IMG/VR virus record: IMGVR_UViG_2778261572_000005
Span: 1-4,104 of that record
DNA from: a virus
Lineage: Duplodnaviria; Heunggongvirae; Uroviricota; Caudoviricetes
Reading direction: 5' to 3' (one strand)
Length of the DNA stretch: 4,104 nt
The notes under the pieces are model-generated. The model saw only the letters and a program-made list of their open reading frames with translations, did no database searches and was not told the DNA's origin. The position numbers and the translations under genes are program-made. Each line of letters starts with the position of its first letter. Within the stretch, counting starts at the first letter, position 1. This document shows positions 1 through 4,104 of this stretch, piece by piece.

Positions 1-1
1 G

Positions 2-361
2 CACATCAAACGCGTAGGCCGCAATTTCCGGGCGGCTGTCAGGACCATAAAAACGAACGTAACGTTTGAGTGAACCAGAAGCCCGGTATTCGCCGGATAT
101 GTAACACTCGACACCGAAGGCTTTACAGACCAGGTCACACAGGATGTGCATATAACGCGGCGGTGTACTGGCGTCACTCGGCGCACCCGCGCTGGCAGCT
201 TCCTGAATGTCGAACAATTCAGCGTCGTTTTCGCTGATGCCATGCTGGCGCATATAAGCCTGGGCTTTTGCAATAGCGTTAGCGGCTTCTTCCGGGCTTG
301 ATGTCCCTCTGGCAAGGCGTAACAGTTTTTTGATTTTGGCGATGTATTTATTTTTGCTCAT
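2..361 (-). CDS. Partial CDS (N-terminal 120 codons; 3' end lies beyond window position 1), DUF2786-like protein
   Basis: ATG at 361..359 preceded by SD-like GAGGGAG (minus-strand ...GAGGGAGTAGACA-ATG). Hand translation gives MSKNKYIAKIKKLLRLARGTSSPEEAANAIAKAQAYMRQHGISENDAELFDIQEAASAGAPSDASTPPRYMHILCDLVCKAFGVECYISGEYRASGSLKRYVRFYGPDSRPEIAAYAFDV with no stop to the window edge. Not in the ORF track because it is open-ended. The N-terminal K-I-K-K-L-L-x-L-A pattern followed by EEA/AKAQ resembles DUF2786 proteins as I recall them; assignment from memory, not a search. Confidence 0.6.
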   Translation of the reverse strand, partial: MSKNKYIAKIKKLLRLARGTSSPEEAANAIAKAQAYMRQHGISENDAELFDIQEAASAGAPSDASTPPRYMHILCDLVCKAFGVECYISGEYRASGSLKRYVRFYGPDSRPEIAAYAFDV

Positions 362-713
362 TGTCTACTCCCTCTAACAACGTGGTGATGAAATGTCCAG
401 CCATTACTCCGGCATCACGATAAGCGCATCGTGTTTTGCTTTCTGATTGTTTACGCCGGGGAACGGAATAAGCTGATGCAAACATCTCCGCCCTGAATTG
501 CTGCATTGTCAGGACTTTCAATTGCAGGAGACGCTCTTCATCGCTGCATACTGTGCTCATTAATCCATCAAGGATGACATTAAAAGCCCGGTATACCGGG
601 TCATCTTTTGTTCGTTTTGTCAGGGCCACAGCACTGATTATTGACAATGCGCGCTCAAGCTTTTTCAGCTCTGAATTTGGCCATTCAACAGGTGACCAGA
701 CTTTATCTTTCAT
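348..713 (-). CDS. Hypothetical protein, 121 aa from the ATG (MKDKVWSPVEW...); first 6 codons identical to the upstream neighbour
   Basis: ORF track 348..719; the track start is a TTG, but the ATG at 713..711 has a well-spaced SD (AAGGGG, 8 nt upstream), so I call the start there. Stop overlaps the next gene's start by 14 nt (operon-style packing). No recognisable family. Confidence 0.6.
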   Translation of the reverse strand: MKDKVWSPVEWPNSELKKLERALSIISAVALTKRTKDDPVYRAFNVILDGLMSTVCSDEERLLQLKVLTMQQFRAEMFASAYSVPRRKQSESKTRCAYRDAGVMAGHFITTLLEGVDNEQK

Positions 714-763
714 ATACAAATCCCCTTAATTCAGGCGTAAGCCAGCCCCGGCGGGTTTACGCC
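696..763. repeat. 68-bp perfect direct repeat, copy 1 (partner at 1309..1376)
   Basis: CCAGACTTTATCTTTCATATACAAATCCCCTTAATTCAGGCGTAAGCCAGCCCCGGCGGGTTTACGCC is identical at both sites (offset 613 bp), checked base by base. On the minus strand it contains a GC-rich stem, the SD AAGGGG, the ATG and the codons for MKDKVW. Confidence 0.95.
734..763 (-). promoter_or_regulatory. Predicted RNA stem-loop in the 5' leader of the 121-aa gene (7-bp stem GGCGUAA/UUACGCC, GC-rich 16-nt loop), about 20 nt upstream of the SD
   Basis: Minus-strand transcript: GGCGUAA-ACCCGCCGGGGCUGGC-UUACGCC then UGAAUUAAGGGGAUUUGUAU-AUG. The U-rich tract lies 5' of the stem, not 3', so it is not a canonical intrinsic terminator. 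Function inferred, not demonstrated. Confidence 0.35.
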
Positions 764-792
764 ATATACAAATAAAATTAAAAACAGACTTA

Positions 793-1326
793 TTAACTAC
801 GACGTTTAGCTTTCCGGTAATGACGGTCAACAGACTTAACGAACGCCTTCACATCACGGGCAATCAAATCCAGCGGATAATATTCATCCAGCAGTTCCAT
901 TCCGCTGAATCGAATCTGAAAAAAATCAGGCTTATCTTTATATGACTCCATCAGGCCAATAAACCGCAGCTGACGCGGGAGGGATTCCTGCACACCTGAA
1001 ATAGTGAGCAAATCATCTTCAAGGATGTATCCGAGGTTTTCCATACCCTCGCTACATATTCTTGTCAGCATGTTCCGTGTCGCGAGGTACAGTGCCACCG
1101 TGTCATTCGCCATCATGGCGAACAAATCCCCCTGAATATAAGCCCCCTTACTGGCCACAGCATTTCCGGCAATCTGCGCATCAAGTACCACATGCATAAA
1201 ATCGGCAGGTGCTCCCAGATGGCCCAGCAATGATGACGCCCATAACGTTACATTGGTTAACTTCTCAGATGAACGGGTAGCAAAACCTTCAGGAGTAACA
1301 ATAAAATCCCAGACTTTATCTTTCAT
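793..1326 (-). CDS. Hypothetical protein, 177 aa from the ATG (MKDKVWDFIVTPEGF...)
   Basis: ORF track 793..1332; ATG at 1326..1324 with the same SD and leader as the 348..713 gene because both sit inside the 68-bp repeat. Stop TAA at 795..793. The body is unrelated to the downstream paralogous start. No recognisable family. Confidence 0.6.
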   Translation of the reverse strand: MKDKVWDFIVTPEGFATRSSEKLTNVTLWASSLLGHLGAPADFMHVVLDAQIAGNAVASKGAYIQGDLFAMMANDTVALYLATRNMLTRICSEGMENLGYILEDDLLTISGVQESLPRQLRFIGLMESYKDKPDFFQIRFSGMELLDEYYPLDLIARDVKAFVKSVDRHYRKAKRRS

Positions 1327-1376
1327 ATACAAATCCCCTTAATTCAGGCGTAAGCCAGCCCCGGCGGGTTTACGCC
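1309..1376. repeat. 68-bp perfect direct repeat, copy 2 (partner at 696..763)
   Basis: Identical 68-mer; includes the start region of the 177-aa gene. The AT-rich sequence 5' of each copy (minus strand) is also similar but degenerate (GTTTTTAATT in both). Confidence 0.95.
1347..1376 (-). promoter_or_regulatory. Predicted RNA stem-loop in the 5' leader of the 177-aa gene (same element as 734..763)
   Basis: Same sequence as the 734..763 hairpin; sits between the stop of the 63-aa gene (1408) and the SD/ATG at 1326. Confidence 0.35.
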
Positions 1377-1407
1377 TGTTTTAAATAACAATTAAAAACA
1401 AATTAAA

Positions 1408-1599
1408 TTAATGCGGTGCTTTCAGTGTTTCGACTTTTACGAAATAAGGCTCGACATTAATTTCAACCACACAACCACATTTAAAATCTCTGGCTGGCGC
1501 AACAGTTTTCACCACACGACCACAACCAAACACTGCGCTGTCGGTATGTGTAAAACGAGTCCCCACCGGATATAGCTGATTAAAGTTCTTCGCGTTCAT
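1408..1599 (-). CDS. Hypothetical small protein, 63 aa
   Basis: ATG at 1599..1597 preceded by GGAGG (7-nt spacer); stop TAA at 1410..1408. Overlaps the 3' end of the upstream gene by 20 nt. No recognisable family. Confidence 0.5.
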   Translation of the reverse strand: MNAKNFNQLYPVGTRFTHTDSAVFGCGRVVKTVAPARDFKCGCVVEINVEPYFVKVETLKAPH

Positions 1600-1813
1600 G
1601 AGGCGGCCTCCATCCTTTCAGGTGAGCATTGGCACAGAACTGTGCCCGGTGTTCAGCCCAGATGCGGCGCAGGGTGCTACACGGGCTTTGCGCTGCCTTA
1701 CGCCACAGTTTTTCAGCCTCAGCATAATCGCCGCGTTGTTCTGCTCTGGACGCGCCCAGCGAATACGCCGCGCAACTATTTCCGGCTCTGTACTCTTTGA
1801 TATCCTGATGCAT
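1580..1813 (-). CDS. Hypothetical small protein, 77 aa from the internal ATG (MHQDIKEYRAGNS...); weak resemblance to ANR-type small regulators (tentative)
   Basis: The track ORF (1580..1903) begins inside the upstream gene. The ATG at 1813..1811 lies 1 nt after that gene's TAA (TAA-C-ATG) with a GGGG SD about 7 nt upstream, so I call the start there. The W/R/C-containing helical stretch (EKLWRKAAQ...RRIWAEHRAQFC) recalls ANR-family small proteins; low confidence, from memory. Confidence 0.45.
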   Translation of the reverse strand: MHQDIKEYRAGNSCAAYSLGASRAEQRGDYAEAEKLWRKAAQSPCSTLRRIWAEHRAQFCANAHLKGWRPPHEREEL

Positions 1814-1814
1814 G

Positions 1815-2459
1815 TTAAACCCCTGCAATATCCAGCGGGATTGCGCGGTATTCATCAGAATCACCGACGCGCTCATACACGCGGATATAGCTTTTGCTGC
1901 CAATCACCTGGACCGCTTCGCCAATCAGCGTCATGGCGTTATTCCAGCGTTCGTCCTCAATTTCAAGGCGACGCAAGGCCAGAACGCGCCCGGTGTTAAT
2001 GTTGCCTTCCTTGTCCGTGCTGAATGCCTCGCTGATGATGGCTTTGATTTCAGGGCGTGCACCTTCCGTCCAGTCAGCCAGGCAATCATCAATCAGCGAC
2101 TTCGCGGTCTGAATGCGTTCATCAAACGCAATACGGTCCTGCATGGCGCGCTGAATCTTGTAACGCCCGTCAAAGCTGTAAAGCGTGATATTCCCTTTTT
2201 TACCGCCTTTCACAGCGCCGTATTTCTCCGCCGACAGGTCAATAAACGCCTGAATATCACCAAACGCACGCAGTTTCAGTTCACGCAGTGAGGCAGAGGC
2301 AGCAATCACCATCTCCACAAGCTCACCGACCAGCTGCTCACGGTCGCGGTCAATATCTTTGATAAGGCTTTCAGGTGTCATTACGCCACGGGCATCCACC
2401 CAGTAACCTTCAGGCGCTTGAGTTTTCGTGTATTGCTTAACTTTATTTTCAGTCGTCAT
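1815..2459 (-). CDS. DUF3164-family protein (conserved hypothetical of Mu-like transposable phages), 214 aa
   Basis: Complete ORF, ATG at 2459..2457 with GAGG upstream. Motifs GGKKGN, SFDGRY, FDER and RVYER match my recollection of DUF3164 proteins found next to B in Mu-like prophages; not verified by search. Confidence 0.7.
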   Translation of the reverse strand: MTTENKVKQYTKTQAPEGYWVDARGVMTPESLIKDIDRDREQLVGELVEMVIAASASLRELKLRAFGDIQAFIDLSAEKYGAVKGGKKGNITLYSFDGRYKIQRAMQDRIAFDERIQTAKSLIDDCLADWTEGARPEIKAIISEAFSTDKEGNINTGRVLALRRLEIEDERWNNAMTLIGEAVQVIGSKSYIRVYERVGDSDEYRAIPLDIAGV

Positions 2460-2488
2460 AATTAAATTACCTCAGTGATATTTACAGA

Positions 2489-2704
2489 TTAATTTGTGTT
2501 ATGTGCGCGAGGCGCAACGTTTTCAGAAAAAATATTCACGCCGTTGTAGTCATTTCTCAGTGCTTCCTTGATAACATCATGTAATCCTGTTGCCACCTGA
2601 AACTCCCTTTCGGAAGTGCCGTCCTCCAAATAACTTCCTGTAATCTGGGTTAAAACCCTGCCTTTTTCATTGGTATAGATAATTACTTCTAATTTAACCG
2701 CCAT
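2489..2704 (-). CDS. Hypothetical small protein, 71 aa
   Basis: ATG at 2704..2702 with a good SD (AGAGGAA, about 7-nt spacer); stop TAA at 2491..2489. Sequence looks globular (MAVKLEVIIYTNEKGRVLTQITGSY...). No recognisable family. Confidence 0.55.
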   Translation of the reverse strand: MAVKLEVIIYTNEKGRVLTQITGSYLEDGTSEREFQVATGLHDVIKEALRNDYNGVNIFSENVAPRAHNTN

Positions 2705-2716
2705 TCTGATTTCCTC

Positions 2717-2941
2717 TCATTGCCATACGACGGTACAGCCGTCGATACAGGACGTTTTCACCACACGGCGCAGGCCGCTGAATGTCTGGACGATTTCCGT
2801 TACCGGCCATACCGGACCGCCAGCAGGTGGGCAGGCATAAACCACAGGTAAACGGTGATGTTGCCACGTTACACGACCGCCAGTGGTGTGGATGGCCACA
2901 CGGGCACGGGAACGGACGGCGTTAATGGTCTGCTTGTCCAT
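2717..2941 (-). CDS. Hypothetical small protein, about 74 aa (MDKQTINAVRSRARV...); start uncertain (alternative ATG at 2956)
   Basis: The track ORF (2717..3034) begins with a non-ATG start inside the upstream gene's tail. In-frame ATGs at 2956 and 2941; the one at 2941 has GGAG 9 nt upstream. Only long ORF on either strand in this interval. Confidence 0.45.
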   Translation of the reverse strand: MDKQTINAVRSRARVAIHTTGGRVTWQHHRLPVVYACPPAGGPVWPVTEIVQTFSGLRRVVKTSCIDGCTVVWQ

Positions 2942-2955
2942 CGTCTTGTTCTCCA

Positions 2956-2977
2956 TCAGTGAATTAACATTTCTGCG
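2956..2977. repeat. 22-bp perfect direct repeat, copy 1 (partner at 3329..3350); intergenic relic of the B-gene 3' end
   Basis: TCAGTGAATTAACATTTCTGCG at both sites. On the minus strand it reads CGCAGAAATGTTAATTCACTGA, which at 3329..3350 encodes the B C-terminus (A)EMLIH-stop. At 2956..2977 the same frame is closed by a TAA just upstream, so it is non-coding there. Confidence 0.9.
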
Positions 2978-2982
2978 CTGCA

Positions 2983-3315
2983 TTATCTGAGTGCAAACGC
3001 AAGTCGTGGCTGATAACGGGGAAGGCGGGCACACATACGCGCAAGACGATAAGCCCGACGAAATCCCTGTAAATTCTGCTCAAAAGGAATAATCATTAAT
3101 CGCGCACAGCATTCATCAACGTCCCAGTCATCGCTGGTATTTCCGGTTCCATTGATTTCTCTTTCCCGGGAATACAAATCAATGCGCAGTTCACCCGGCA
3201 CGAAGCAATCAACAAACGGAATAATTTCACCAGGGGTCCCATTAGAATAAATACAACCATTACGACTGATATTCCGTAGCGCTTTAATTTCTTTTCTGAC
3301 GACAACCTGTTCCAT
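2983..3315 (-). CDS. Hypothetical protein, 110 aa, immediately downstream of the B-like gene and bracketed by the 22-bp repeats
   Basis: ATG at 3315..3313, 13 nt after the B stop, with AAAGG/AGG upstream. The C-terminal 30 residues are Arg-rich, so the true 3' end is uncertain. A nested 69-aa ORF (3096..3305, TTG start) is an alternative reading. Confidence 0.45.
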   Translation of the reverse strand: MEQVVVRKEIKALRNISRNGCIYSNGTPGEIIPFVDCFVPGELRIDLYSREREINGTGNTSDDWDVDECCARLMIIPFEQNLQGFRRAYRLARMCARLPRYQPRLAFALR

Positions 3316-3328
3316 ACCTGGCCTTTAC

Positions 3329-3350
3329 TCAGTGAATTAACATTTCTGCG
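3329..3350. repeat. 22-bp perfect direct repeat, copy 2 (partner at 2956..2977); overlaps the last 7 codons and stop of the B-like gene
   Basis: Identical 22-mer, offset 373 bp from copy 1. Confidence 0.9.
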
Positions 3351-4093
3351 AATTTATCAATGGCCTGCACACTGACCGGTGCATCGCTGATATCACAAAT
3401 CCGGTACACACCGCGCGCCAGTTTGAACAGGCGGCGGGCATTACCCAGTGAGCGTGCGTAGAGCGCCTCGCTGATTTCCGGTTCTGCTGCTTCCGGCATC
3501 AGCCCGGTAGCTATCTGGTTAAAATCTTCCTGCGACAGCGTATCGCCCAGGTTAAGCGCCAGCGCCACACGGCTGTATAACTGGGCGAACTCACCGCGAC
3601 GTCCCTTGAGGTTAATCAGAAGGCGTGGCATACCCGCCAGGACAATCCCGATACCCGCTTTGTCATGCAGACGGCGCAGAACCTCCAGTGCGCGATAGGG
3701 GAGCAGTTCAGCCTCGTCCACCATCAGCAGGCGACCGGAATCACGCAGTTCTCGCACACATGCATCAATCAGTTCGTGGATATTGCCGCGAACTTTTACC
3801 CCCAGCTGGCGGCACAGCTCCTCAAGCAGTGTTCTGGCTGTATAGCCCGGGTCGGCTTCAATCAGGACCGCATCCCGGTTTCTGCGGGCGTATTCACGCA
3901 GAATCATTGTTTTGCCAAGACCTGCCGCGCCATACAGTACGCAGATTTCACATTCCAGATGAGCATAGGCCAACACCTCCAGTCCTTTGGCAGCCATACC
4001 GGTGGCAACAAATTTCGCTTTAATACGGCGGCTATTTTCCTTTTCCCGCTCACGGGTCACAAAGGCAGAAATGCGTTCTTCAATATCAGCCAT
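3329..4093 (-). CDS. MuB/TniB-like AAA+ ATPase (DNA transposition protein B-like), 254 aa as drawn; 5' end may extend beyond the window
   Basis: Walker A GAAGLGKT (nt 3908..3931) and Walker B LLMVDEAE (nt 3707..3730). Overall pattern resembles Mu B / TniB-type transposition ATPases. ATG at 4093 is preceded by AGGG, but the frame stays open to the window edge at 4104. Confidence 0.85.
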   Translation of the reverse strand: MADIEERISAFVTREREKENSRRIKAKFVATGMAAKGLEVLAYAHLECEICVLYGAAGLGKTMILREYARRNRDAVLIEADPGYTARTLLEELCRQLGVKVRGNIHELIDACVRELRDSGRLLMVDEAELLPYRALEVLRRLHDKAGIGIVLAGMPRLLINLKGRRGEFAQLYSRVALALNLGDTLSQEDFNQIATGLMPEAAEPEISEALYARSLGNARRLFKLARGVYRICDISDAPVSVQAIDKFAEMLIH

Positions 4094-4104
4094 ATCGCCC
4101 TGAT

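Follow-up and report, generated by a model that had tools for sequence, protein, structure and literature searches.

Two identical hairpins in the early region of a Mu-like prophage

We analyzed a 4104-nt stretch of viral DNA (Caudoviricetes; positions 1 to 4104 of IMG/VR record IMGVR_UViG_2778261572_000005; hereafter, the window), in which two copies of a GC-rich hairpin precede two genes whose products both begin with MKDKVW. Every gene of the window lies on the minus strand. In the order of transcription, these are a MuB-like AAA ATPase (4093-3329), small open reading frames (ORFs), a DUF3164 protein (2459-1815), an ANR-like 77-aa ORF, a 63-aa ORF (1408-1599), gene X (793-1326; 177 aa, MKDKVWDF...), gene Y (348-713; 121 aa, MKDKVWSP...), and the start of a DUF2786 gene. 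Neither X, the cassette between the two hairpins, nor Y has a Pfam domain. In related E. coli loci, this block is flanked by a Mu-type transposase with Ner-like and repressor-like helix-turn-helix genes on one side and by GemA and Mor on the other, and we thus assign the window to the early “semi-essential” region of a Mu-like transposable E. coli prophage. Two E. coli chromosomes, TUM1881 and TUM9812, match positions 300-800 with 100% identity. A megablast search with a 501-nt hairpin-containing query matched 57 of 5426 E. coli genomes, each time in a prophage, and the whole window had no megablast match in the phage collection.

In the minus-strand RNA, the hairpin is a 30-nt element, GGCGUAA-ACCCGCCGGGGCUGGC-UUACGCC, found in two identical copies, one in the spacer between X and Y (copy 1, 734-763) and the other in the spacer between the 63-aa gene and X (copy 2, 1347-1376). 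The initial annotation, which reported a duplicated GC-rich stem-loop in front of both MKDKVW genes, was correct in this respect, and the pattern occurs twice in the window against 0.02 matches expected by chance. Both copies are part of an exact 68-nt direct repeat (696-763 and 1309-1376, minus strand) that comprises the hairpin, the leader UGAAUUAAGGGGAUUUGUAU with its Shine-Dalgarno (SD) sequence, and the first six codons of the following gene (AUG AAA GAU AAA GUC UGG, encoding MKDKVW). The leader occupies 714-733 before gene Y, with the SD core GGGGA at 721-725, and is identical before gene X (1327-1346). On the 5' side of each stem lies an A/U-rich tract, reaching from the stop codon of X to copy 1 (764-792) and from the stop codon of the 63-aa gene to copy 2 (1377-1407); in relatives, the former tract accompanies gene X and the latter the 63-aa gene. 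Apart from these two hairpin-bearing spacers, the window has no long intercistronic spacer; the remaining genes abut or overlap.

The basal stem described initially, GGCGUAA/UUACGCC (7 bp, hereafter P1), was recovered, whereas the 16 nt that it encloses, described as a loop, pair further (CC.GC/GC.GG) and are topped by a CGGG tetraloop. In copy 2, CA/UG pairs extend P1 to 9 bp (1345-1378), and the predicted free energies of the two copies are -13.9 and -15.1 kcal/mol. The hairpin was also thought to end about 20 nt before the SD; its 3' end is in fact 8 nt from the SD core GGGGA and 20 nt from the AUG. Taken as a single sequence, the fold is unexceptional (z = -1.3 to -1.4), and the significance of the hairpin lies in its duplication and in its conservation elsewhere, rather than in the stability of this fold.

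We rejected an intrinsic terminator, in agreement with the initial annotation. On the sense strand, the U-rich tract is 5' of the stem and the 3' flank reads UGAAUUAAGG, and a consensus scan called no terminator at either hairpin site on either strand. The same scan found no promoter-like sites at 700-800 or 1310-1410.

The hairpin recurs in phage Mu and across Enterobacterales

We examined how widely the element occurs. A pattern scan of IMG/VR, which fixes P1 by construction and through which part of our hairpin collection was ascertained, recovered about 60 Mu-like loci (loci of the comparison are designated by L numbers) with several different inner sequences and the same architecture: a stop codon, an A/U-rich tract (often UUUAAAU), the hairpin, (U/A)GA or AAA, an SD, and an AUG. 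We also built a covariance model, R1, to which copies 1 and 2 of the window score 72.9 and 73.6 bits, and applied it to loci picked by protein homology alone, a choice that is unbiased with respect to the hairpin. Among 80 DUF3164-anchored species-representative genomes, 24 had a sense-strand match 200-500 nt downstream of DUF3164. All 24 belong to Enterobacterales, with the hairpin just downstream of the DUF3164-ANR-63aa genes, and they include the genera Photorhabdus, Xenorhabdus, Yersinia, Serratia, Pantoea, Erwinia, Mixta, Kosakonia, Trabulsiella, Morganella, Buttiauxella, Phytobacter, and Lonsdalea. R1 had no match in the Pseudomonas, beta-proteobacterial, and other DUF3164-anchored loci among the 80. 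One enterobacterial-type hairpin (62.9 bits) was observed at 6019-6069 of L096 (MF975721, “Pseudomonas phage VW-6B”), whose recorded host is Pseudomonas fluorescens; since none of the DUF3164-sampled Pseudomonas prophage loci has the hairpin, the host assignment or origin of this record may be worth rechecking.

Phage Mu itself (L098, AF083977) carries the element at 6358-6408 (39 bits, E ~1e-9), with the sequence UUUUAAUUAU-GGCGCGA-UACGUCAGGAGAUUGC-UCGCGCC-UGAA. It lies in the 98-nt gam-gp11 spacer, the sole long spacer of the Mu early operon, where the Mu record annotates just the ribosome-binding site (RBS) of gp11; the A/U-rich tract of this spacer is at 6330-6367. The covariance model found no further copy in the remaining 25.7 kb of Mu. 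Similarly, in a full 43-kb prophage region including host flanks, it found two copies only, at the two junctions of the window. Of 60 Gam-anchored IMG/VR loci, 28 had full-length matches directly after gam, and one more match was clipped by the contig end. The hairpin was present in every Gam-anchored locus with a Gam at least 90% identical; loci with a Gam 73-80% identical have a diverged hairpin in the same place, and at ~60% identity we saw no comparable hairpin downstream of gam, where the next gene mostly follows directly.

Across 117 non-redundant junctions, the distance from a stop codon to the hairpin is 15-61 nt (modes 23 and 31-32), and that from the hairpin to a start codon is 13-28 nt (mode 19). 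These junctions join about 43 different downstream N-termini to about 18 upstream C-termini, the latter mostly of the 63-aa family or Gam. The hairpin is always at the boundary between the conserved early block and hypervariable cargo, the first copy following Gam in Mu and DUF3164-ANR-63aa in the window, so that in Mu-like prophages of the DUF3164 type the first hairpin has the 63-aa gene as its conserved neighbor upstream. Some prophages contain three consecutive copies that bracket short cassettes (L025, 1969-2937, with spacings of ~459 nt; L003, L004, and L072), and hairpins of classes A, E, and F can be mixed within one phage.

A search of Rfam 15 returned no matching family and chance-level scores only, such as Lnt on the plus strand (26 bits against a gathering score of 55; E = 0.98). 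We came across no description of the hairpin in the GenBank annotation of Mu, among the Rfam families, or in the literature accessible to search; the pre-2000 Mu literature lay outside this search, and an earlier mention is possible. Judging from sequence comparisons, this is apparently an undescribed family of intercistronic phage hairpins that may act as a recombination linker, by the mechanism proposed below.

Compensatory changes keep the stem paired

We aligned 45 distinct hairpins. Pairing of P1 holds in 96.8% of the cells of this alignment, compared with 35-47% in controls in which the partner positions were slid. The basal pairs GGCG/CGCC are nearly invariant, and pairs 5, 6, and 7 (three of the seven) switch by double substitutions among UAA/UUA, CGA/UCG (Mu), CAG/CUG (“hairpin F”), and UGA/UCA (Pantoea). 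Double changes occupy 33 cells of P1, against 14.6 +/- 2.6 in shuffled alignments (reached in 0 of 500), a statistic that overstates the independence of the sequences, as they are phylogenetically related and were in part ascertained with P1 fixed. The apical stem below the G-rich loop differs in sequence by class (CC.GC/GC.GG, GCGUC/GAUGC, C.GUC/GAC.G, and others), and its register varies between the classes. The check for covariation across homologous junctions, suggested in the initial annotation, thus came out in favor of its view of a conserved cis element whose stem has been kept; the element is found in Mu and in protein-anchored loci from many Enterobacterales genera. Overall, the comparisons show a conserved module that has preserved its stem through compensatory changes and is located at gene-content breakpoints.

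Some of this variation bears on the strand, with mixed results. Single-sided changes in P1 (GGUGUAA in L002 and UUACGUC in L120) form G.U pairs possible just on the sense strand, and the hairpins of classes B, E, and H pair on the gene-sense strand only, whereas classes A, G, and I, discussed below, favor the antisense strand.

Two further features of the hairpin sequence were observed. The loops of L005, L021, L037, L098, L186, and others contain a nearly invariant GGG, and in many classes they read GUCAGGGGA or GUCAGGAGA, resembling an SD or a CsrA-type GGA ~25-30 nt upstream of the real SD; the loop region of Mu reads AGGAG, which is SD-like. In addition, an AU (or UU) precedes the 5' arm in copy 1 (764-768 with 757-763) and in most relatives and creates a two-codon frame, AUG-GCG-UAA, whose stop is retained as UGA in a Pantoea variant (L113). 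We rejected this mini-ORF as a conserved feature: copy 2 (CAGGCG), class D, and the Gam-type relatives L233-L239 lack it, and in Mu the frame is a long read-through. The two-codon frame at the 5' arm is probably incidental.

The exact repeat is best read as a footprint of recombination

The initial annotation took the exact duplication in front of two genes as a sign of function. Comparison with related prophages points instead to its origin. The same upstream flank and hairpin precede at least eight different leaders and genes, which shows that the hairpin is separable from the sequence downstream of it, and megablast homology between the window and its E. coli relatives ends at 696, 702, or 729, positions inside the repeat or next to it. 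The native start of the homologues of Y (131 aa, 79-91% identical) is MKDK[VFD][WR]S, and in their prophages Y is found after a DUF7448 gene, hairpin F (GGCGCAG-GUAAACAGGU-CUGCGCC), and then the same leader. In L003, L004, and L072, it is gene X that occupies this very slot, behind the same hairpin F and leader. X and Y have no homology past their first six residues. Given their common slot, hairpin F, leader, and MKDK[VF]W start, we regard X and Y as alternative cassettes with a common 5' junction, Y taking the place of X in other prophages.

A single homologous crossover inside the 30-nt hairpin, between a copy located 3' of X in one genome and a copy located 5' of Y in another, would place X and Y in tandem and generate the exact 68-nt repeat. 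This model predicts that the flank 5' of copy 1 should be the one that follows X, and indeed that flank comes after X in every case. With X and Y as alternative cassettes and homology breaking at the hairpin, the duplication is best read as a recombination footprint, and its origin by homologous recombination within the hairpin, giving X and Y in tandem, is well supported. Accordingly, the view that the exactness of the repeat itself indicates function is not supported, as recombination more probably joined two cassettes in which the MKDK[VF]W start and the leader were already shared.

The 110-aa gene at 2983-3315 is a further footprint of cassette gain, here without a hairpin. This gene is an insertion that is absent from relatives (E. 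coli L003 and L179), has a GC content of 0.45 compared with 0.55-0.59 in its neighbors, and is flanked by an exact 22-bp direct repeat, CGCAGAAATGTTAATTCACTGA (2956-2977 and 3329-3350), which corresponds to the 3' end of the B-like ATPase gene. Within the inserted gene, at 3150-3184, lies a 17-nt inverted repeat with a 1-nt spacer (CATTGATTTCTCTTTCC / GGGAATACAAATCAATG), which was also the source of a chance-level Rfam match to mir-74 (24.6 bits against a gathering score of 57). Two observations concern gene Y. It shares 14 nt (348-361) with the start of the DUF2786 gene, as do the homologues of Y in L180-L183, and this overlap suggests that the two genes are translationally coupled and move together. 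It also contains a perfect GC-rich palindrome, GCCCGGTATACCGGGT, at 586-601, which the consensus scan scored as terminator-like on both strands.

A proposed role in punctuating the early transcript

Bringing these results together, we propose that the hairpins form a conserved intercistronic module of the early operon of Enterobacterales Mu-type transposable phages, in which recombination produced the repeat and the hairpin serves as punctuation at the RNA level, be it as a barrier to decay, a mark for processing, or a site for a binding factor; our confidence in this overall account is evenly balanced. The module consists of a stop codon, an A/U-rich spacer of 15-45 nt, the hairpin (GGCG-NNN/NNN-CGCC, a small internal loop, a short apical stem, and a G-rich loop), 13-28 nt with the SD, and a start codon. 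Its first copy opens the hypervariable cassette region, and further copies follow individual cassettes. On the early polycistronic mRNA, the hairpin would be just clear of the areas covered by a terminating ribosome and by an initiating one, and owing to this position it should remain folded even when the mRNA is heavily translated. It could act there as a barrier against 3'-to-5' exonucleolytic decay proceeding from the variable distal part, and/or leave a structured end once an endonuclease has cut the adjacent A/U-rich tract. Either way, the stability of the conserved upstream genes would be uncoupled from that of the variable downstream cargo, and the conserved sequence of the hairpin would also offer a portable homology patch for cassette exchange. 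The specific function, that of a decay barrier or processing mark, is suggested by sequence and position, and we advance it tentatively, as plausible though somewhat short of probable.

Several observations weigh against this proposal. Ensemble folding in a 161-nt context gave a formation probability of ~1.0 for P1 of copy 2, and of only 0.38 for copy 1. The relatedness of the aligned sequences and their partial ascertainment with P1 fixed, as noted above, reduce the weight of the shuffle test. The strong conservation across genera of GGCG/CGCC, of position A8, and of the GGG in the loop exceeds what a generic exonuclease barrier needs, and suggests either a sequence-specific binding factor or homogenization by recombination. 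Finally, for hairpins of classes A (that of the window), G, and I, greater stability is predicted on the antisense strand, e.g., -18.2 vs -13.9 kcal/mol, because a sense A.C mismatch corresponds to an antisense G.U pair, which leaves room for a role at the DNA level or in an antisense transcript.

Homogenization could be the whole explanation if the hairpin were purely a recombination linker or scar, kept uniform and spread by repeated exchange between phages and free of any RNA or protein-binding function. Such a view would account for the coincidence of gene-content breakpoints with the hairpin, for the many unrelated cassettes that it flanks, and for its very high identity across genera whose neighboring proteins share only 65-77%; the 110-aa cassette, flanked by a plain direct repeat and no hairpin, is also in line with it. 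However, a passive homology patch needs no palindrome, and here pairing was kept through the double substitutions in P1 and through apical stems of different sequence. The placement of the hairpin relative to stop and start codons is constrained as well, and the single copy in Mu makes intragenomic exchange impossible there. We consider a pure linker rather unlikely.

The element was originally put forward as a candidate for translational control, and we assessed this by thermodynamic modeling, using ensemble folding to calculate RBS accessibility as the mean probability of being unpaired from the SD to the AUG. Over the 117 junctions, modeled accessibility was 0.475 with the hairpin intact, 0.474 with P1 broken, and 0.479 with the hairpin shuffled (p = 0.97 and 0.65), and deleting the hairpin had a small effect (0.450). 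In the window, accessibility was 0.40 for copy 1 and 0.57 for copy 2; deletion of the hairpin lowered the former to 0.16 and had no effect on the latter. Neither occlusion nor insulation of the RBS is thus seen across the junctions, and translational control of this kind was not borne out: as modeled, the hairpin is not an SD-occluding translational switch, nor, as detailed below, a Com-type element.

The preferred account, of a hairpin that punctuates the transcript, must also be weighed against a sequence-specific mRNA operator, through which a host or phage RNA-binding protein would control the translation or stability of the downstream cassette; the initial annotation, too, named a regulator binding site among its options. 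The near invariance of the basal GGCG/CGCC, A8, and loop GGG would be expected of such a site, as would its short, fixed distance upstream of the SD. A candidate protein is CsrA, whose target leaders carry a GGA in a hairpin loop and a second GGA overlapping the SD. A loop-proximal GGA is present in Mu and in relatives of classes B, C, and E, where the loop reads CAGGAGA or CAGGGGA and resembles an SD. The window's own loop, CCGGGGCU, is without GGA, its CGGG being closed by a C-G pair, and we rejected a CsrA-regulated leader here, though the SD, AAGGGGAU, contains GGA. The hairpin is not linked to any one candidate protein gene, the upstream gene being Gam in Mu and the 63-aa gene in the window, and modeled RBS accessibility does not depend on it. 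An operator seems to us unlikely.

The initial annotation drew an analogy, which it called speculative, to another RNA-binding protein, Com of Mu. Com recognizes CC(N2-3)GAG in a hexaloop beside a structure that sequesters the start codon of mom (PMC6483171). In both cases, a phage of the Mu family has a small hairpin ahead of a start codon; the two differ in that the window hairpin belongs to the early operon and mom is a late gene. The Com motif is absent, as the inner sequence ACCCGCCGGGGCUGGC lacks GAG and the Mu copy, UCAGGAG, has a single C only. Thermodynamic modeling predicted no start-codon-sequestering structure at the window hairpins, and no com or mom gene is annotated in the complete TUM1881 prophage, identical over 300-800, a result based on annotation rather than on a profile search. 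The analogy therefore does not hold. In a more far-reaching version of the operator, the hairpin would define a new cis-regulatory RNA family of Mu-type phages, bound by a host or phage factor through the invariant GGCG/CGCC and the G-rich loop and gating the expression or stability of the hypervariable cargo downstream of gam, and would serve as a dedicated swap site for promoterless cassettes, a recombinase-independent functional analogue of integron attC arrays; this, too, is improbable in our estimation.

Alternatively, the palindrome may act as DNA, as a protein site or cruciform in prophage chromatin, transposition, or replication, or it may act on an antisense transcript, for example as a plus-strand terminator. 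The better antisense pairing of classes A, G, and I would fit, and on the plus strand the 9-bp stem of copy 2 is followed by UGUUUUAAAU, with AUUUUUAAAA in that position in some relatives. However, neither copy 1 (AUAUACAAAU) nor Mu (AUAAUUAAAA) has a U-rich 3' flank on the antisense strand, the scan called no terminator, and no promoter is predicted to drive antisense transcription. The sense-only pairing of classes B, E, and H and of the P1 wobble variants also argues against this role, and the variable apical stems, being palindromic themselves, fit intramolecular pairing better than two protein half-sites. Altogether, a DNA-level or antisense role is quite improbable. Least likely of all, and in our view very unlikely, is a translational insulator or enhancer that shields the RBS from interference by upstream sequence, or a portable initiation region with the SD and the AUG-AAA-GAU-AAA start, in spite of the constant 13-28 nt to the start codon, the extent of the 68-nt repeat from the hairpin to +18 (approximately an initiation footprint), and the predicted loss of accessibility when copy 1 is deleted, given that copy 2 shows no such effect and that the 117 junctions are predicted to be equally accessible with the hairpin intact, broken, or shuffled and little affected by its deletion.

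Implications

Mu is a classic model phage, yet the sole long spacer of its early operon, between gam and gp11, holds a conserved structured element that is unannotated and matches no Rfam family. If the hairpin does have a role in mRNA processing or stability, this would explain how the transposition genes are expressed independently of a fast-changing accessory cargo. If it is mainly a recombination linker, cassette turnover in the semi-essential region, a part of the genome in which anti-host and anti-defense genes tend to collect, would gain both a concrete mechanism and a marker that can be searched for. Either way, the motif is a practical landmark for the annotation of Mu-like prophages.

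Comparison with known systems

Several known elements resemble the Mu-type hairpin in part. Integron attC sites are imperfect palindromes with RYYYAAC and GTTRRRY core sites, and are found near an integron integrase. We rejected an attC site, as GTTRRRY occurs on neither strand of the hairpin (GTTTACG fails at RRR) and the recombinase of this element is a Mu-type DDE transposase.

Repetitive extragenic palindromic (REP) sequences and the bacterial interspersed mosaic elements (BIME) that they form are intercistronic stem-loops that stabilize upstream mRNA, as between malE and malF; they are host chromosomal repeats with hundreds of copies and a consensus of their own. The Mu-type hairpin similarly is a GC-rich hairpin between cistrons, located after a stop codon with no U-tract behind it, and the barrier to 3' exonucleases proposed here, with differential stability of mRNA segments, is of the same kind. 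In contrast, it is found only in Mu-like prophages, and its distribution (57 of 5426 E. coli genomes, always in a prophage, and two copies in 43 kb including the host flanks) led us to reject a relationship with REP. The hairpin shares only ~9 nt, GGCGUAAAC, with a REP variant.

A second parallel is the early region of phage T7, in which RNase III hairpins consist of about two helical turns (~20 bp) of interrupted duplex. In both systems, several related hairpins punctuate an early polycistronic phage transcript just upstream of ribosome-binding sites. The Mu-type hairpin is shorter, ~12-14 bp in total (7-9 bp basal and 3-5 bp apical), and as this duplex is too short, RNase III is an unlikely nuclease; RNase E acting in the adjacent A/U-rich tract would be more plausible.

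By its evolutionary behavior, the closest described system is that of the promoter-early stem-loops (PeSLs) of T4-type phages (PMC2839356), which combine a strong sigma-70 promoter with a transcription-terminating stem-loop (Arbiol et al. 2010, PMC2839356; PMC4122927). The Mu-type hairpin differs from these in having neither a predicted promoter nor a 3' U-tract, and in its position within a single long early operon, directly ahead of an RBS. What the two have in common is that both are short, conserved, and repeated intergenic stem-loop motifs, which flank small non-essential genes or ORFans in hyperplastic regions. In both, recombination between copies explains insertions, deletions, and replacements among related phages, and, as in the PeSL system, the breakpoints between relatives of the Mu-type phages fall at the copies of the hairpin.

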